Part shown: positions 2,170 to 15,819 of the stretch, one piece after another | Layout: each line of letters begins with the position of its first letter | Numbering within the stretch: position 1 is the stretch's first letter | Assembly (NCBI GenBank): GCA_964557715.1 | Contig: CAZLAP010000044.1 | Location: forward strand, 1-30,060 | Direction of reading: 5' to 3' | Length of the DNA stretch: 30,060 nucleotides | DNA from: an uncultured Candidatus Saccharibacteria bacterium | Lineage (GTDB): Bacteria; Patescibacteriota; Minisyncoccia; Minisyncoccales; RBG-13-42-11 | Notes under the pieces: generated by a model | Told to the model about the DNA's origin: nothing | Databases searched by the model: none | The model's input: the letters and a program-made list of their open reading frames with translations, nothing else | Program-made: the position numbers and the translations under genes

Positions 2170-3387
2170 ATGAACAAAAAACTAATAATCAGCATCATCG
2201 TTATTTTAGTTATAGTTTTAGCGATAGGCGCGTATTTCTTTTTCGTCCAGCAAAGCGGTAGAGATAAGAAAGAGCCGGAGGAAATTGTCATTGGTTATAA
2301 CGCCGACCAATCTATTGGCCCCACTGCCGCTTTTGGCGTATGGGGAAGGCAAGGATTTGAAATTGCTATTGAGGAAATTAACGCCGAAGGAGGTATTCTC
2401 GGAAGAAAAATAAAACCAATTATTTTTGACGATAAAGCGGATGCGTCAACCTCTAAAAAAAACATAGAGCAATTGATTTTTGAACACCGCGCTTTGGCGG
2501 TAATCGGGCCGGCAAGTAGCGTTAACGCGCTATATTGGCTGGATTTAGCCCAAGACAACGAGCTGATTGTTTTTCCCCACATTGCAACCGCAACCGAGAT
2601 AACAACAAAGTATTCCGAGCGACCGAAAAATTATATTTTCGGAATAAGAACTTTAGACAAGGATCAGGCAAGATTGTCTGTAGCTTGGCTTATAAAAGAA
2701 ACAAATAACGGGAAAATTGCAGTTATTCACGATTCAACATCCTATGGCACTCAAGGATTAAAAGACGTTAATGAAACTTTAACCAGATGGGGAAAAGTTC
2801 CTGTTTTTGTCGGAGAATTTAACAGGGGAGCCGGGATTGAAGAGCTTATTGAATTAATTGAATCAGCCAAAACGGTTGAAGCGGATGCCATTATTTTTTA
2901 CGCTTTAGCCGACTCTACCGCTGATTTTCTAAAAGCCTCAGAGGAGGTGGCAAATTATGAGCCTGTTTTAATGGGCACCGCTGCCAATGCCAGCATCTTA
3001 TGGCAATTATCAGGTTCGCTGGCGAGTAAAATAGTTTTTACGGCTCCGGTAAGCGCGAATTTTAACGAGAAGACAAAAGAGCTGAACCAAAAAATAATAG
3101 ATAAATACGGAGAGGCCCCGATAATACTTTCTTCCGCTGCCAGCGGATACGATGCAGTTTATCTTCTTAAAGCTGCGATAGAGAAAGCGGGAACAATTGA
3201 TAATAGTGCGGTTAGAGACGCTTTGGAAAACATTGAAAGAATAGATGGCATTATGAGAACATTTTTCAGGCCTTTCAGTAAAGATGACCATGAAACTTTG
3301 AGCGTAACAGATTCTTTTTTATCTCGTTGGGTTGACGGAGAGATTGTTATTATAGATGAAGATATTTCAACTCTTGAGATTAGATAA
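2170..3387 (+). CDS. Membrane-anchored LivJ/LivK-type (branched-chain amino acid family) substrate-binding protein
   Basis: N-terminal TM anchor. Type-1 periplasmic binding protein motifs: AIEEINAEGGILGRKI..IIFDD, AVIGPASS, GYDAVYLL..AIEKAG. Confidence 0.85.
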   Translation: MNKKLIISIIVILVIVLAIGAYFFFVQQSGRDKKEPEEIVIGYNADQSIGPTAAFGVWGRQGFEIAIEEINAEGGILGRKIKPIIFDDKADASTSKKNIEQLIFEHRALAVIGPASSVNALYWLDLAQDNELIVFPHIATATEITTKYSERPKNYIFGIRTLDKDQARLSVAWLIKETNNGKIAVIHDSTSYGTQGLKDVNETLTRWGKVPVFVGEFNRGAGIEELIELIESAKTVEADAIIFYALADSTADFLKASEEVANYEPVLMGTAANASILWQLSGSLASKIVFTAPVSANFNEKTKELNQKIIDKYGEAPIILSSAASGYDAVYLLKAAIEKAGTIDNSAVRDALENIERIDGIMRTFFRPFSKDDHETLSVTDSFLSRWVDGEIVIIDEDISTLEIR

Positions 3388-3449
3388 GAAACAGGCTTTT
3401 GAGTTGGTCGGTCAATGAAAAGGATATTTTTACATCCTATAAATTCATA

Positions 3450-4862
3450 ATGGACGCGTTAATGAAAATAATAAAAAGATTTTCAGATTTAAAATTGAAT
3501 TTTAAAATAGCTTTATTTGTTGTTTTGATAACGATACCGTTTGTCTTTTTTTTAATATTTTTCTTATTGAACTCCCTTATTCAAACTTCGCTTGACATTG
3601 AAGCTGAATCTTTTGAAGATACGATGTTTTTAATAAAGCAAGATTTGATTAGAAACGTAAGCGCAAAGGCGCAGGTTTACGATTTTACGCTTAAGAATAT
3701 GATAATTGACCTTCAACCCGCAAAAGACAGCCTTGTTTCTGAGGGAGAAATTAGCGATAAATTTTTAGCAGATTATTATTATAAGCATCAAATAATTTCC
3801 GACATTTTTTTTATTAGCCCGGTTTCATTTAAAGTTTTTCCGCAGGATAAAGCCGATTTGGAGCAGAAAAAAGAACTTTTTTCTTTGATTGCTGAAAGCG
3901 AAAAAAGGTATGCCGGTTTTTGGCTTGGCCCATACGATGATTTGAGGAATCAGAAAAGAATAATGACCTATGTTTTACCCGTTTGGGAAGAAAATAATCT
4001 TAATGGAGTGCTCGGAATAGATGTTGATGTTGATATTTTACTTACAGAGATTATTCAAGCAGATATTTCAAAGCTTTCTTATGTTGTTATTGTCAGAAAC
4101 ACGGGAGAATTCATTTCTTCTTCGGAGAAATTTTATGATGATTTCGAAATAGAAAAAAAAGAAGAGTCCGTAATTTTTAGCAGCCAAATAGTAAAAAAGC
4201 AGGGGATTGAAGAAATTTTTACTTTAACGGGAAAGGAAAAAGGAATGTTTGAAATTTCAGGAGATGCAGACGAAAGTCAAAGAATAGTGTCATTTTCAAT
4301 TATACCTTCTTTCAGCGGGAAAATTTTGATTGTCTCTCCGTTAACTGAAATAATTGAAATCCAGAAAGAAAAAGCTAAGGAAATTCAGCAGTCTGTTTAT
4401 AATATTGGCATAGCCGCATTTGCGGGAGTGATTATTTTTTTATTATTATTCATTTTTTCTCTGCTTTATTTTTTACGGAAAACTATTATAGGTCCGATTG
4501 GCAAACTGAAGAGAGGCATGGAAATTTTAGAAAAAACAAGATTTAAAACAGAAATAGAAATTAAAGCAAAAGACGAAATAGGCGAATTAGCCGTCGGTTT
4601 CAATAATATGGCTAGGCGATTAAAGGATTCATACGAAGGCCTGGAACAGAAAATTCTGGAAAAAACAAAAGAATTGAAAGAACTGAACGAAGTTTTAGAG
4701 ATGAAAGTTGAAGAAAAAACCAAAGAACTTAACGAGCATATTAAAAAAATAGAAAAACTGCAAAAATTTTTTGTTGGCCGCGAGCTTAAAATGATTGATT
4801 TAAAAAAAGAAATCAAAGCGCTAAAAAAAGAAAAACCGGGCGGAGAAGAAAAAAAAGAATAG
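3450..4862 (+). CDS. Membrane sensor: TM-dCache-TM-HAMP-coiled coil, with no catalytic output domain
   Basis: Two TM segments flank a dCache-like domain (W.GPYDD...MTY..PV....GVLGIDV). HAMP motif PIGKL...DEIGELAVGFNNM. Two LE.K..EKTKEL helices, then ends in VGRELKMIDLK. Start is likely ATG 3450 or 3462 rather than TTG 3399. Confidence 0.8.
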   Translation: MDALMKIIKRFSDLKLNFKIALFVVLITIPFVFFLIFFLLNSLIQTSLDIEAESFEDTMFLIKQDLIRNVSAKAQVYDFTLKNMIIDLQPAKDSLVSEGEISDKFLADYYYKHQIISDIFFISPVSFKVFPQDKADLEQKKELFSLIAESEKRYAGFWLGPYDDLRNQKRIMTYVLPVWEENNLNGVLGIDVDVDILLTEIIQADISKLSYVVIVRNTGEFISSSEKFYDDFEIEKKEESVIFSSQIVKKQGIEEIFTLTGKEKGMFEISGDADESQRIVSFSIIPSFSGKILIVSPLTEIIEIQKEKAKEIQQSVYNIGIAAFAGVIIFLLLFIFSLLYFLRKTIIGPIGKLKRGMEILEKTRFKTEIEIKAKDEIGELAVGFNNMARRLKDSYEGLEQKILEKTKELKELNEVLEMKVEEKTKELNEHIKKIEKLQKFFVGRELKMIDLKKEIKALKKEKPGGEEKKE

Positions 4863-13385: not shown

Positions 13386-13772
13386 ATGAAGTCTTATTAT
13401 TCAAAAGAAGTGATAAAAAGATTTACTCAGCCGAAAAATTTCGGGCAGATTAAGAATGCTGACGGTATCGGCAAGGTCGGCAATCCGAGATGCGGGGACA
13501 TTATGAAGCTTTACCTTAAGGTTGGCGACGGAGGGGTGATTAAAGATATTAAGTTTCATACTTTGGGCTGTGCCGCAGCAATAGCCGCGTCCGATATGGT
13601 TTGCGATTTGGTCAGAGGCAAAACAATTAAACAGGCTTTGAAGATTAATTACAAAAAGGTTATTAAGAAGCTTGGCGATTTGCCGCCCTTGAAAATTCAT
13701 TGTTCTGTTCTTGCCCGCGAGGGCCTGGAAGCGGCAGTTGAAAATTATTATGCAAAAAGAAAGAAAAAATAA
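13386..13772 (+). CDS. iscU: Fe-S scaffold IscU/NifU-N
   Basis: GNPRCGDIM, F.TLGCAAAIA, LPP.KIHCS (three Cys). Confidence 0.93.
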   Translation: MKSYYSKEVIKRFTQPKNFGQIKNADGIGKVGNPRCGDIMKLYLKVGDGGVIKDIKFHTLGCAAAIAASDMVCDLVRGKTIKQALKINYKKVIKKLGDLPPLKIHCSVLAREGLEAAVENYYAKRKKK

Positions 13773-14820
13773 AAAAGCAGTAATAGCTCTGTCCGGGGGA
13801 ATTGACAGTTCAGTATCAGCGGCTTTGTTGAAAGAGGCTGGTTTTGACGTTGTCGGAGTCTTTATGAAATTTTGGAAAGCTCCGGATAGTAAAAATTTGG
13901 GCGAAAACTGGAACAGATGCTGTTCTTCAGAGTTTGAAACAAGAGCCAGAAAAGTGGCTAAAATTTTAAACATTCCTTTTTATGTTTTTAATTTTGAAAG
14001 GGAATTTAAAAAAAGAATTGTTGATTATTTTTTTAAAGAAAATAAAAGAGGGCTGACTCCCAATCCCTGCGTGGTTTGCAACAAGGAAATTAAATTTGGT
14101 TTGTTTCTGGAGAAAGCGTTGAAAATGAATGCAGATTTCATTGCCACCGGCCATTATGCTTGTCTTGGAAAGGGCAGCAAGCTGCTGAAAGCAAAAGATA
14201 AAGAAAAAGACCAGTCGTATTTTTTGTGGCAGCTGAATCAGAAACAGCTGAAGCGCGTTTTGTTTCCAATAGGCGGCTATAAAAGAAAAGAAGTGGAAAT
14301 ATTGGCAAAAAAACTTAAACTTCCTTTTAATGGAGTTAAAAAATCTCAGGAAATTTGTTTTGTTCCCGAAACTGCTAAAGATTTTTTAAGGCATTGTTTT
14401 AAATCAAAACCGGGTAAAATTATTGACAGCAAAGGAAAAATTCTGGGCCGGCATCAGGGATTGTGGTTTTACACCATTGGCCAAAGAAAAGGAATAAAAC
14501 TGCCTGGCGGGCCTTATTATGTTTTGCATAAAGATTTAAAAAAGAACATTTTAATCATAACAAAAAAAGGAAAAAATTTATTAAAGAAAGAATTAACCTG
14601 TAAGAATGTTAATTGGCTGTCAGGCAAACAGCCGAAATTGCCGTTGAAAGCGAGCGTAAAAATCAGGTACAGGCAAAAACCGGTTTCCGCTGTTATTAGA
14701 AAACTTGGCGGCAAAAACTGTTTTTTGAAGTTTGATAAAGCGCAGCGAGCTGTTACGCCCGGCCAGTCAGCTGTGTTTTATAAAGGCCAAAAGGTTTTGG
14801 GCGGAGGAATCATATCTTGA
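13750..14820 (+). CDS. mnmA: tRNA U34 2-thiouridylase
   Basis: SGGIDSS PP-loop, TPNPCVVCN, ATGHY, KDQSYFL, SQEICF, YTIGQRKG, TPGQSAVFY. Start is likely ATG 13750 inside the iscU 3' end. Confidence 0.95.
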   Translation: MQKERKNKKAVIALSGGIDSSVSAALLKEAGFDVVGVFMKFWKAPDSKNLGENWNRCCSSEFETRARKVAKILNIPFYVFNFEREFKKRIVDYFFKENKRGLTPNPCVVCNKEIKFGLFLEKALKMNADFIATGHYACLGKGSKLLKAKDKEKDQSYFLWQLNQKQLKRVLFPIGGYKRKEVEILAKKLKLPFNGVKKSQEICFVPETAKDFLRHCFKSKPGKIIDSKGKILGRHQGLWFYTIGQRKGIKLPGGPYYVLHKDLKKNILIITKKGKNLLKKELTCKNVNWLSGKQPKLPLKASVKIRYRQKPVSAVIRKLGGKNCFLKFDKAQRAVTPGQSAVFYKGQKVLGGGIIS

Positions 14821-14860
14821 GACAAAAGGTCGAAAAATTAAAAATTATTAAGTTTATTTT

Positions 14861-15151
14861 ATGGTAGAAACCATCAAAGAAAATAAAGTTTCTTGCTGGG
14901 ATTGCAAGAAGGAAATAGAAATTGAAGGAAAGGAAATTAAAAATGGGAGAATGTTAGTTTATGAGAACGGTGGAGATAAATTAAGAGTATTCAAATGCAA
15001 TGATTGCTTTGAGAAATCTCCGGAATTGAAAAATTTTCAGTCATGCGAGGTTTATTCCAGGATTGTCGGTTATTTGAGGCCGGTTCAGCAATGGAACGAA
15101 GGCAAGCAAAAAGAGTTTAAAGACAGAAAGGAATACAGCCTTCCTAAATAA
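14861..15151 (+). CDS. Stand-alone class III ribonucleotide reductase (NrdD) C-terminal domain: Zn ribbon plus glycyl-radical loop
   Basis: CWDC...CNDC followed by YSRIVGYLRPVQQWNEGKQKEFKDR, the NrdD C-terminal signature; only 96 aa. Confidence 0.75.
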   Translation: MVETIKENKVSCWDCKKEIEIEGKEIKNGRMLVYENGGDKLRVFKCNDCFEKSPELKNFQSCEVYSRIVGYLRPVQQWNEGKQKEFKDRKEYSLPK

Positions 15152-15207: not shown

Positions 15208-15819
15208 ATGAAAAAATACGGAGAAATTAAAAATTTATCCTTCGGCACAGCTCAGGGCAAGCCCGAATTAAAGGGAATTTCTCAAAAGACCATTAACATT
15301 CATTGGGGAAAGCTTTATCGGGGATATGTTAAAAAATGGCAGGAGATTCAAGAAAAATTGAAAGGTATTGATAAGTCTTCGGCTAACGCCACTTTTTCCG
15401 ATTTGAGAGAATTGAAAGTTGAAGAAACATTCGCTGCCAACGCTGTTATTCTGCATGAGGCTTTTTTTGACGTATTGGGCGGTGAAGGAGTTGCCAAAGG
15501 AGAAATAGCGGAAAGGATTAAAAAAGATTTCGGTTCGTTCAAATCCTGGCAGGAGGAATTCAAGGTCTTGGGATTGTCTAGCCGCGGCTGGGTAATTCTG
15601 GCTTACGATTTTAACGAAGGAAGATTGAGAAATTATATTGCAGATACGCATAATTTCTACGGCATTTGGGGAGCAGCTCCTGTTTTAGTTCTGGATGTTT
15701 ACGAACATGCCTATTTCATTGATTTCGGCTCTGACAGAAAAAGTTATATTGAGGCATTTTTCCAGAACCTTGACTGGCAGGTGATCAATGAAAGACTCCT
15801 GAAAGCAATTAAAAAATAG
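15208..15819 (+). CDS. Fe/Mn superoxide dismutase
   Basis: IHWGKLY.GYV, N...LHE.FF, DFGSF..W..EF, DVYEHAY. Metal specificity cannot be decided from sequence alone here. Confidence 0.92.
   Translation: MKKYGEIKNLSFGTAQGKPELKGISQKTINIHWGKLYRGYVKKWQEIQEKLKGIDKSSANATFSDLRELKVEETFAANAVILHEAFFDVLGGEGVAKGEIAERIKKDFGSFKSWQEEFKVLGLSSRGWVILAYDFNEGRLRNYIADTHNFYGIWGAAPVLVLDVYEHAYFIDFGSDRKSYIEAFFQNLDWQVINERLLKAIKK
15238..15261. repeat. Short palindromic-type element inserted in frame in the SOD gene (encodes SFGTAQGK)
   Basis: TCCTTCGGCACAGCTCAGGGCAAG with TCCT/AGGG arms; 24 nt preserves the frame. It resembles CCCTTCGAC..GCTCAGGGCAAG repeats I recall from CPR genomes (unverified). Confidence 0.5.

Follow-up and report, generated by a model that had tools for sequence, protein, structure and literature searches.

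Autonomous glycyl radical cofactors are known as 'spare parts' of pyruvate formate-lyase (PFL), the described examples being GrcA (YfiD) of E. coli and its phage T4 homologue Y06I (PMC13450708, PMC8683613), and according to a 2026 review no such spare parts are known outside the formate lyases. The window, which is the whole 30,060-nt stretch of DNA analysed here, encodes a 96-aa protein that resembles GrcA in being a small, stand-alone protein that corresponds to the C-terminal, radical-bearing part of a glycyl radical enzyme, in co-occurring with both the activase and an intact parent enzyme (in the window's own genome and in 10 of the 12 other carriers), and in having a tail nearly identical to that of the parent. 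By analogy, it would also be expected to be activated by the activase of the parent and to replace the fragment that O2 cleaves off. In contrast to GrcA, it derives from the class III ribonucleotide reductase (RNR) NrdD (PF13597) and not from PFL, and a Pfam search at E ≤ 1 gave no match to PF01228 (Gly_radical). Furthermore, it possesses its own putative Cys4 zinc ribbon, whereas the N-terminus of GrcA is disordered, and its gene resides in operons with PerR-like, superoxide dismutase (SOD) and rubrerythrin genes or between nrdD and nrdG. The protein is not a member of the GrcA family, and the likeness is functional rather than familial. With the C-terminal domain of NrdD it shares a putatively metal-binding ribbon, a β-hairpin with the radical glycine and a helix, in the same order, while in contrast to NrdD it is free-standing and has no catalytic barrel. 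A full-text literature search, with most subscription journals outside its coverage, turned up no account of an NrdD radical domain that is either stand-alone or split; the novelty here lies in the linkage of an NrdD-type radical module to oxidative-stress operons. Based on comparative and modelling evidence, it is considered fairly probable that the 96-aa protein is a spare part that repairs O2-broken NrdD by means of an NrdD-derived autonomous glycyl-radical domain.

The ORF of the 96-aa protein starts with ATG and ends with TAA (Table 1). Residues C12/C15, C46/C49, C62 and G70 lie where the original prediction had placed them, and the neighbourhood that it described, with isc genes and mnmA upstream and an SOD gene downstream, is borne out by the Pfam matches of the neighbours. 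Residues 31–92 align with positions 521–562 of the 562-position PF13597 (NRDD) profile (48.7 bits, E=6.1e-13; cut-off 26.2), which is accompanied at E ≤ 1 by two weak zinc-finger matches in Pfam. All seven NrdD equivalog models of NCBIfam are matched by the protein at their C-terminal ends only (the last ~45 positions) and with scores far short of their cut-offs, the score against TIGR02487 being 45.1 bits versus a cut-off of 326. Judged from its sequence, the protein belongs to PF13597 at the domain level only, has no full-length catalytic α/β barrel and is not an RNR enzyme. Where such proteins carry any annotation at present, it reads 'anaerobic ribonucleoside-triphosphate reductase' or 'hypothetical protein'.

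Table 1. Positions of the 96-aa module gene, its predicted parts and the adjacent features in the window
Feature	Position	Strand	Basis
mnmA (tRNA 2-thiouridylase)	13711..14820	+	Pfam tRNA_Me_trans, 231 bits
Weak sigma-70-like site TTGAGA-17-AAAAAT	14817..14845	+	Consensus match only, 9/12
96-aa module gene, NrdD-type glycyl-radical, stand-alone	14861..15151	+	ORF list; span includes stop codon
First zinc-ribbon knuckle C12-W-D-C15 (putative)	14894..14905	+	C12, D14, C15 invariant in 65 homologs
Second zinc-ribbon knuckle C46-N-D-C49 (putative)	14996..15007	+	K45, C46, C49 invariant in 65 homologs
NrdD-like tail C62-K96 (strand, Gly loop, strand, helix)	15044..15148	+	Identity to the tail of the genome's own NrdD
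Gly70 codon GGT, predicted radical site	15068..15070	+	Invariant; aligned with the radical glycine of the NrdD profile
Fe/Mn superoxide dismutase	15208..15819	+	Pfam Sod_Fe_C 1.8e-25, Sod_Fe_N 1.1e-5

The AF2 monomer model, which is of moderate confidence only (mean pLDDT 72.7, pTM 0.43), contains a ribbon-like sheet in which the first knuckle is placed between strands 9–11 and 18–22 and the second at the end of strand 39–46 and the start of helix 47–52, while the tail consists of strands 63–65 and 72–74 and helix 75–88. The two CxxC knuckles are formed by four invariant cysteines, and their spacing is unlike that of NrdD: 30 residues separate the knuckles of this Cys4 ribbon, in contrast to 9 residues in the Cys-His-Cys-Cys ribbon of the NrdD of the same genome. 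This Cys4 pattern and the precedent of NrdD suggest a putative metal (Zn) binding site. When the monomer model was compared with the PDB by Foldseek, nothing significant emerged (best E 0.24, PARP zinc fingers); the fold comparison of the isolated module is thus uninformative, and a sequence search of the PDB gave nothing meaningful (best E 0.57, unrelated enzymes).

Homologs of 88–117 aa fall into 239 clusters at 90% identity, and at 50% identity the best 150 of 475 clusters all lie within 42–159 aa. In an alignment of 65 members that are 52–74% identical to the query, 24 columns are invariant, including Gly70, all four ribbon cysteines, S66-R67 and V69-G70-Y71-L72-R73-P74-V75, and the strongest conservation is found in the Gly loop and helix, not in the ribbon. 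The R-x-x-G-Y-x-R-P loop of NrdD thus appears in the protein as RIVG70YLRP. The invariance of Gly70 is the opposite of the poor conservation that the original prediction had named as a point against itself. The tail C62–K96 is identical to the tail of the NrdD of the same genome at 30 of 35 residues and 83 of 105 nucleotides, Gly70 being equivalent to Gly676 of that NrdD in the tail alignment. Across genomes, identity between the 32-aa tail and the NrdD tail of the same genome averages 89%; this pairing takes first rank, counting ties, in 9 of 11 genomes, and none of 20,000 within-type permutations reached the observed identity; the tail of the small protein covaries with, that is, tracks, the NrdD tail of its own genome. 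Recent gene conversion is unsupported as the source of the similarity in the window's genome, since only 15 of the 28 codons compared among identical tail residues are the same. Gene conversion is possible in three relatives (G601, G694 and G077), where 22–24 of 28–29 codons are the same.

The presumed parent enzyme is present in the window's own genome, which measures 524 kb and is 99% complete. Its NrdD, of 709 aa, is intact and carries its own ribbon and Gly loop, and nrdD is followed directly by an NrdG2 gene (210.7 bits, cut-off 131). The nrdD gene was rebuilt from two contigs (C21 and C12) that share a 16-nt overlap and align with the NrdD of relatives as colinear single HSPs, both being short pieces of a metagenome bin with an estimated contamination of 1.5%. 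The original prediction had turned on whether nrdD and nrdG accompany the small gene and on whether nrdD keeps its own Gly loop; both genes and the loop were found here, and nrdD and nrdG are likewise present in all 12 other sampled genomes with the small gene. In the sample of 401 genomes of the class, where any NrdD tail occurs in only 109, all 13 carriers of the small gene thus also have nrdD; the gene is intact in 10 of the 12 other carriers and tail-less in the remaining two. Class I/II RNR (PF02867) gave no match in the window's genome or in the 8 other searched genomes with intact NrdD and the small gene, and NrdD is the only RNR found in the former. A search for NrdR in this genome found no gene, the sole ATP-cone lying inside NrdD. 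Deoxynucleoside salvage is possible in Patescibacteria, which weakens arguments from essentiality.

The gene order around the small gene connects it to oxygen defence. Upstream in the window lie genes for Rrf2, a class-V aminotransferase (IscS-like), a NifU_N protein (IscU) and MnmA, the last of which ends 40 nt before the start of the small gene. The listed TTG start of mnmA overlaps iscU and may be too far upstream. The SOD gene starts 56 nt downstream of the small gene, and no terminator-like site lies between the two, so they are likely to be co-transcribed. The region contains 8 sigma-70-like sites versus 5.1 ± 2.9 expected, and the match upstream of the small gene is therefore not evidence of function. 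Adjacency of the small gene and SOD is found in seven relatives as well, in one of which (P0025) the whole order of mnmA, small gene and SOD recurs. In 14 of the 18 contexts unlinked to nrdD, the next or next-but-one downstream gene encodes SOD, rubrerythrin, superoxide reductase (SOR, desulfoferrodoxin) or hemerythrin, and in 7 of the 18 a Fur-family gene with PerR as its best match lies directly upstream, often overlapping; since the genomes compared are related and not independent, these counts overstate the support. At one locus, genes for a PerR-like regulator, the small protein, hemerythrin, an EncFtn-like protein, peroxiredoxin, rubrerythrin and SOR follow in this order. In three of the 18 contexts, the neighbours are UvdE or RF1 and not O2-defence genes. 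The outer flanks vary, and SOD-type and PerR-type contexts are interleaved on the protein tree. The original remark on an O2-defence neighbourhood, which had been made for a single locus, has its counterpart across the family in the conserved linkage to SOD, rubrerythrin, desulfoferrodoxin and PerR-like genes, and the retention of the small gene in oxygen-stress operons by relatives makes it a strong spare-part candidate. Searches of the window's genome found neither a Fur/PerR gene nor rubrerythrin, so the regulatory argument rests on the relatives, and the region upstream of the window's small gene holds no convincing match to the Per-box consensus. A palindrome, TTTATTAGTAATAAA, occurs upstream of some PerR-like genes in relatives, which in AT-rich DNA is a weak indication.

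Four results speak for repair: the O2-defence neighbours in contexts unlinked to nrdD, the placement of the small gene between nrdD and nrdG in other relatives together with two NrdDs devoid of the Gly loop, the agreement between the tails of the small protein and of NrdD, and the co-fold described below. A possible mechanism of repair can be outlined from these data. The Cys4 zinc ribbon (residues ~9–52) may present a β-hairpin tipped by Gly70, which is followed by helix 75–88. The NrdG2-type activase of the genome could, together with SAM, abstract a hydrogen from Gly70 of the free 96-aa protein, which may be self-sufficient as an activase substrate owing to its own ribbon. Upon cleavage of intact NrdD by O2 at Gly676, the ~33-residue C-terminal fragment would be lost, and residues ~62–96 of the small protein could then insert into the NrdD barrel in place of this fragment. 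Radical transfer to the active-site cysteine may thereby be restored and activity rescued. An objection is that cleaved NrdD would retain its own ribbon and a stub to V675, which a second, ribbon-bearing module would have to displace or accommodate. Co-expression with O2/ROS detoxification genes, which may be O2-responsive and would comprise SOD in the window's genome and PerR-like-controlled operons of rubrerythrin, superoxide reductase and SOD in relatives, would make the spare available during or just after oxygen exposure. The mechanism would matter for the organism because NrdD is the only RNR found in its genome; the habitat is represented by salt-marsh metagenomes, in which oxygen fluctuates. 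It is an evenly balanced proposition that class III RNR has a radical domain in the form of a detachable and exchangeable cartridge, of which a ribbon-bearing copy was recruited into a PerR-type stress response and re-arms the RNR after oxygen pulses.

With this family, there is a concrete and testable spare-part candidate for the enzyme by which anaerobes produce their DNA precursors. If the proposed repair is true, the family would extend spare parts for the first time to a glycyl radical enzyme beyond the formate lyases, and would be the first of them to possess a metal site of its own; class III RNR damaged by oxygen would be repairable, and some anaerobes would have placed RNR repair in peroxide and superoxide stress operons. 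After oxygen pulses, an ultra-small anaerobe whose only RNR is O2-labile could then re-arm the enzyme without resynthesis, which would help to explain how 0.5-Mb Patescibacteria without a backup RNR persist under fluctuating oxygen, for example in salt marshes. The modularity would also explain the frequency of tail-less nrdD with a Gly-loop mini-ORF, as well as orphan copies in viruses. In addition, the unit of zinc ribbon and Gly loop would be a sufficient substrate of NrdG, and the 96 residues would offer a minimal one for mechanistic work.

Docking of the small protein was modelled by co-folding it with residues 95–675 of NrdD as a mimic of the O2-cleaved enzyme. The ipSAE was 0.72 versus 0.03 for the best of 3 controls, so the co-fold with NrdD suggested in the original prediction passes, the mark applied being one that 55 of 80 solved complexes and 3 of 110 mismatched pairs reached in calibration, with a set-up unlike the present three-chain one, in which NrdD was artificially split in two. 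All confident partner contacts fall in residues 68–95, the ribbon being without confident placement, and the tail C62–K96 is predicted to be the part that docks in the NrdD barrel. Because the tail is homologous to that of NrdD itself, the pass may reflect the model's memory of intact NrdD structures, and such a modelled result shows likeness, not binding.

The small protein may instead be a constitutive, exchangeable radical subunit or 'radical shuttle', which would serve as an activation aid or alternative cofactor and not as a repair part; this is possible, though rather unlikely. NrdG would in that case prefer the accessible small module, which would dock on NrdD, damaged or not, with the latter's own radical domain swung out. 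The co-fold pass is compatible with such a role, and the order nrdD–small gene–nrdG, found in at least five relatives including the first branch within type A of the protein tree (G694), speaks for it, as this order suits a constitutive subunit or a regulator no less than a repair part. Split NrdDs further show that the lineage works with a loop supplied in trans, and for GrcA, activation of PflB in vivo is reported to extend to the full-length inactive enzyme (Kammel and Sawers 2022, as cited in PMC13450708). On the other hand, the small gene is missing from the two other genera sampled in this family and from the majority of NrdD-bearing genomes in the class, a patchy distribution that argues against a core role, and the main clade has moved from nrdDG to oxidative-stress operons, which points to conditional use.

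Quite unlikely is a function as a sacrificial decoy or NrdG regulator, in which, under oxidative stress, an abundant 96-aa protein would compete for the activase, take and lose the radical and so spare the 709-aa NrdD from irreversible cleavage. A location with PerR-like regulators and ROS-defence genes would suit a decoy, and the protein has everything expected of an activase substrate, namely the ribbon and the Gly loop. However, helix 75–88 contacts the NrdD barrel in the model, is strongly conserved and covaries with the NrdD tail of its own genome; such a helix would be superfluous for a mere NrdG substrate, which argues against a decoy, and in relatives whose NrdD lacks the tail, the module is required for catalysis itself.

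In anaerobes, the small Cys4 protein of an operon of this kind is classically a rubredoxin, whose knuckle spacing is much like the ~30 residues of the 96-aa protein. This motif, and the position of the small gene as the second gene of PerR-like/rubrerythrin/SOR operons, would fit a rubredoxin-like protein that carries electrons for a neighbouring rubrerythrin, SOR or SOD, with the NrdD-like tail as an evolutionary leftover. Such a carrier is very improbable, since PF00301 was unmatched even at E ≤ 1, no rubredoxin appeared among the 50 best Foldseek matches in the PDB (all E ≥ 0.24), conservation is highest outside the ribbon, the rubrerythrins and SORs of these operons have rubredoxin-like domains of their own, and basal family members reside in nrdDG operons. 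That the gene is a functionless duplicate or decaying remnant of the 3' end of nrdD, as might be suggested by how closely the tail matches the genome's own NrdD, is hardly credible and is contradicted by the conservation of the family: homologs with an intact frame number in the hundreds and share 24 invariant residues, the ribbon architecture is unlike that of NrdD, codon usage in the shared tail has diverged, and the upstream DNA in relatives, for which the original prediction had considered a fresh deletion of nrdD, holds mnmA, a PerR-like gene, cupredoxin or nrdD itself, with a decayed nrdD in no case and nothing nrdD-like in the unlinked contexts.

The original prediction had offered two readings, of which the repair module is strengthened by the conserved O2-defence linkage, while the obligate small subunit of a naturally split NrdD is rejected for the window's genome and is there scarcely conceivable. 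On C12, a single reading frame encodes both the ribbon and the complete Gly loop of this genome's own NrdD, and no PF13597 match other than NrdD and the small protein was found in the genome. Precedents for a split enzyme do exist among relatives, both in two genomes with the ribbon-bearing module (G769 and G628) and, in ribbon-less form, in many Patescibacteria. The NrdD ORF of G769 and G628 stops just after the ribbon and the Gly motif is carried only by the small protein, so that, at the level of the genes, the split-subunit arrangement holds there. These two genomes additionally carry class I/II RNR, so their class III system need not function, and the argument for essentiality from tail-less NrdD plus ribbon-bearing module is weakened accordingly. 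Elsewhere in the phylum, a Gly-loop ORF of 40–60 aa follows a tail-less nrdD at 17 of 17 inspected loci, and PF02867 is absent from 5 of 5 near-complete genomes with this arrangement. A search for publications on these ribbon-less mini-ORFs of split nrdD found none. They resemble the 96-aa protein in that the Gly loop and helix are encoded apart from the NrdD barrel, which implies action in trans. In contrast to the 96-aa protein, which is an extra copy beside intact NrdD, they are short and ribbon-less, always lie immediately downstream of tail-less nrdD and carry the only Gly loop of the genome, which makes them obligate subunits. Within the Patescibacteria sample, no other form seems as common as tail-less nrdD with such a mini-ORF.

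The small gene, which starts 40 nt past mnmA and ends 56 nt before an Fe/Mn superoxide dismutase (SOD) gene, encodes a protein with C12/C15, C46/C49, C62 and the candidate radical glycine G70 all at the positions named in the original prediction. It matches the NrdD profile PF13597 (Pfam; E=6.1e-13; score 48.7 bits, cut-off 26.2) in the last ~45 positions only, and aligns solely with the C-terminal ends of the NCBIfam NrdD equivalogs, with scores far under their cut-offs. In the AF2 model (mean pLDDT 72.7), a ribbon of four strands is accompanied by a hairpin (63-65 / 72-74) that has G70 at its tip and by a helix (75-88). Of the neighbouring genes, mnmA with its listed TTG start would overlap the last 62 nt of iscU, and its true start is therefore probably farther downstream. 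The SOD, to judge by the weak match of its N-terminal domain to Pfam Sod_Fe_N (26.3 bits, cut-off 27), is a divergent Fe/Mn SOD.

Locations of the small gene and of related features in the window, in relatives and in a virus
Feature	Location	Strand	Description
Small gene, NrdD-type radical module	window 14861-15151	+	ATG-to-TAA ORF, 96 codons
mnmA/iscU overlap	window 13711-13772		listed mnmA start
SOD gene	window 15208-15819		
Split-nrdD loci	L010, L013, L014, L016, L017, L021-L024, L028, L030, L031, L033-L037		other Patescibacteria genomes
Tandem C-terminal nrdD ORFs, G705	C1:2334-3700		locus L086
Tandem C-terminal nrdD ORFs, G573	C9, locus 3440-4520		locus L087
nrdD tail and second tail-like match, G346	C1:136031-136246 and 137942-138046		
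ANMV-1 virus CDS (KP703175.1)	L092, locus 2357-2791		144 aa

A length-restricted search returned 239 homologous clusters (90% identity), 88-117 aa in length and for the most part from metagenome genomes of Patescibacteria/Parcubacteria type; where a name is attached, it is "anaerobic ribonucleoside-triphosphate reductase" or "hypothetical protein". Among 65 homologs, 52-74% identical to the window's protein, 24 alignment columns are invariant, including both CxxC knuckles and the block S66-R67, V69-G70-Y-L-R-P-V75, and hence the predicted radical glycine itself. When 1.84 billion representatives were searched exhaustively with a profile, 475 clusters (50% identity) reached E<=1e-10; the best 150 are all 42-159 aa long, and most of these cover the entire ribbon-plus-loop profile. 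Neighbours in the ESM Atlas are clusters of 91-116 aa carrying PF13597 only, with Minisyncoccota as the most frequent phylum and one viral cluster. The small gene thus belongs to a conserved family, and a functionless relic left by deletion within nrdD is scarcely credible, given the 239 clusters, the 24 invariant columns and the small size kept family-wide. An orphan viral form of the ribbon-plus-loop module occurs in the 38-kb ANMV-1 virus of uncultured methane-seep archaea, where a CDS annotated as "anaerobic ribonucleoside triphosphate reductase" is 43% identical to residues 11-93 of the window's protein (E=3e-15).

Both nrdD and nrdG are present in the window's own genome (524 kb, 53 contigs, 37% GC, 99% estimated completeness). 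Besides the small gene, PF13597 matches two halves of one nrdD that is interrupted by a contig end, namely residues 1-586, including the ATP-cone, on contig C21 and residues 582-709 on contig C12; the two contigs share 16 nt at these ends, and the reconstructed NrdD aligns with those of relatives in single HSPs. The C12 piece encodes, in a single frame, both the ribbon (C646, H649, C659, C662) and the whole of a Gly loop surrounding G676, and an NrdG2-type activase gene follows nrdD directly (TIGR02495; score 210.7 bits, cut-off 131). No class I/II ribonucleotide reductase (RNR) large subunit (PF02867) was found in this genome; NrdD, with its own ribbon and Gly loop, is therefore intact, and no second RNR was found beside it. 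The other half of the original prediction, that the small protein is an obligate subunit of a naturally split NrdD, is thereby ruled out for this genome as extremely improbable. The contig break (C21 start / C12 end) falls at N-Y-T-T-D, residues 582-586. In relatives, nrdD has large in-frame insertions that are probably inteins: that of G740 (L065) measures about 1.2 kb and sits at the finger-loop Cys (residues ~385-392), and that of G226 (L012) measures about 0.9 kb and lies close to residues 587-602. In several further relatives the nrdD open frame spans 1029-1557 aa. The assembly break could have arisen if strains differ in whether they carry such an insertion.

Of 401 sampled genomes of the same class, 13 carry the ribbon-plus-loop gene; all 13 have nrdD, whereas any NrdD tail occurs in only 109 of the 401. 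Seven carriers, including the window's genome, have type A genes (127-163 bits to the family profile) and six have type B genes (82-88 bits), which possess a C-terminal CxxC. NrdD is intact in 11 of the 13, NrdG adjoins nrdD at every locus inspected, and PF02867 was absent from the nine searched of the 11 genomes that combine intact NrdD with the small gene (all but G699 and G744), the window's included. The two other sampled genera of the family to which the window's genome belongs have nrdD and no small gene, a patchy, accessory-like distribution that suits a dispensable spare more than it does a core subunit.

The link with oxygen defence that the SOD suggests in the window recurs among relatives. 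In 18 contexts of type A genes not beside nrdD (6 from genomes, 12 from metagenome contigs), a gene for Fe/Mn SOD, rubrerythrin, desulfoferrodoxin (superoxide reductase) or hemerythrin is next or next but one downstream in 14, and a Fur-family gene lies directly upstream, frequently overlapping the start of the small gene, in 7. Three of these Fur-family genes were scanned and matched PerR best among NCBIfam models (86-99 bits against 56-62 for Fur), all under the equivalog cut-offs. One locus (L089) reads PerR-like, small gene, hemerythrin, EncFtn-like, peroxiredoxin, rubrerythrin, desulfoferrodoxin. Three contexts (G498, G714 and P0072) differ in having UvdE or RF1 beside the small gene, and the outer flanks differ among contexts (mnmA, cupredoxin, CMAS methyltransferase, RecG, restriction genes). 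On a midpoint-rooted maximum-likelihood tree of these short sequences, SOD-type and PerR-type contexts are interleaved, which points to an O2/ROS-defence linkage that has outlasted repeated rearrangement. Type B, in which the order is nrdD-small-nrdG in every case, forms a clade (100/99), the 18 unlinked type A genes form another (97/95), and within type A the gene of G694, which sits between nrdD and nrdG, branches off earliest on this midpoint-rooted tree. The branching order suggests that the small gene arose within the nrdDG operon and later moved once to an oxidative-stress operon. In L089 (28 nt ahead of the Fur-family gene at 2643), L083 (-47) and L073 (-51), the PerR-like gene heading the small-gene operon is preceded by a perfect 7-1-7 palindrome, TTTATTAGTAATAAA, with near-copies, and none was seen upstream of the window's small gene; in such AT-rich DNA it is a weak candidate operator.

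The small protein also varies together with its own NrdD. In the 11 genomes with both genes, its 32-residue tail is on average 89% identical to the tail of the same genome's NrdD, against 69-79% for those of other genomes; the own tail ranks top, ties included, in 9 of the 11, and none of 20,000 permutations within types attained the observed mean. Lineage-specific residues, such as the His of W-H-K-G-K in G601, recur in both copies. In the window's genome, the two tails agree at 30 of 35 residues and at 83 of 105 nt, but only 15 of 28 codons for identical residues match, and the 60 nt before the tail are unrelated, which argues against a fresh duplication and for a likeness kept at the protein level. 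Gene conversion may have contributed in G601, G694 and G077. Co-folding of the 96-aa protein with NrdD residues 95-675, entered as two chains split at the contig break and ending at V675 to mimic the O2-cleaved enzyme, gave ipSAE values of 0.72, 0.76 and 0.72, whereas the highest-scoring of three controls gave 0.03. In the calibration of the tool, 55 of 80 solved complexes came up to this mark, as did 3 of 110 mismatched pairs. All confident contacts lie in residues 68-95 (loop and helix), and the ribbon is without confident placement. The model may draw on its memory of intact NrdD structures; the result indicates that the tail would fit the native NrdD site, and does not imply binding of the protein.

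Based on these observations, a repair mechanism can be proposed, in which NrdG would place the radical on G70 of the free module, whose own ribbon would make it a complete activase substrate; O2 would cut NrdD at the radical glycine; the vacated site would then be taken by residues ~62-96 of the spare, restoring catalysis; and expression would be coupled to the oxidative-stress response. Cleavage by O2 at the radical glycine is established for glycyl radical enzymes, NrdD among them (PMC12288474), and a stabilising effect on the radical loop has been attributed to the NrdD metal site (Logan 2003, via 10.1101/2022.04.23.489257). We infer these four steps and consider them fairly probable. Family conservation, intact nrdD and nrdG, oxygen-defence linkage, tail covariation and the co-fold support the predicted repair role as far as computation reaches. 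A constitutive exchangeable cofactor is an unlikely alternative use of the module, a sacrificial decoy for NrdG is somewhat less likely again, and a rubredoxin-like electron carrier is very improbable. The closest functional analogues of the proposed spare are GrcA/YfiD and T4 Y06I, which serve pyruvate formate-lyase; the small protein is not a GrcA/YfiD member, having no PF01228 match, an NrdD-derived sequence and its own ribbon. According to a 2026 review, spare parts are known for formate lyases only and their existence in other glycyl radical enzymes is undetermined, a question on which this family bears directly. No description of stand-alone or split NrdD radical domains was found in the literature searched, whose coverage was incomplete, and the conserved setting in PerR-like / SOD / rubrerythrin / SOR operons appears to be a new element.

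Relatives offer natural cases in which a radical loop would be supplied in trans. In G769 and G628, the nrdD ORF stops shortly past the ribbon (the PF13597 match ends at position ~530 of 562) and the Gly motif is carried by the small protein only; both also possess a class I/II RNR, so the necessity of the module cannot be argued there. In a phylum sample, the NrdD tail lies in a frame of <130 aa in about 66 of 111 tail-positive genomes (counted from the table of matches), and the split form may thus be the commonest in Patescibacteria. At all 17 short-frame loci inspected, the large ORF stops just past the ribbon, and the Gly loop is encoded by a second ORF of 40-60 aa that has a Met of its own and lies in a different frame or beyond stop codons. 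PF02867 was found in none of five near-complete genomes with split nrdD, three of them single contigs; unless these organisms rely on salvaged deoxynucleosides, a Gly loop in trans would be functional in this NrdD lineage. In one family of the class, nrdD is split farther upstream, near residue 566 (L064/G427, L086/G705, L087/G573), leaving a ~155-165-aa C-terminal ORF with the last barrel segments, ribbon and Gly loop. This ORF occurs as two identical tandem copies in G705 and G573, either real duplicates or assembly artefacts, and no N-terminal nrdD part was found within the stretch fetched. G346, from the phylum sample, has an intact nrdD tail (774-aa frame) and, about 1.7 kb off, a second tail-like match with three stop codons, which may be a decaying copy of the small module.

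Type B modules (L009, L044-L048) end in a Cys pair (e.g. A-C-x-S-C) that is missing from the adjacent NrdD tail, and several type A homologs end in CC (alignment A1). The C-terminal redox cysteine pairs of class I/II RNRs are similar, as are the zinc-finger-plus-Cys-pair tails reported for class II RNRs (10.1101/2022.04.23.489257), and by analogy the terminal pair might couple the module to a thiol reductant.
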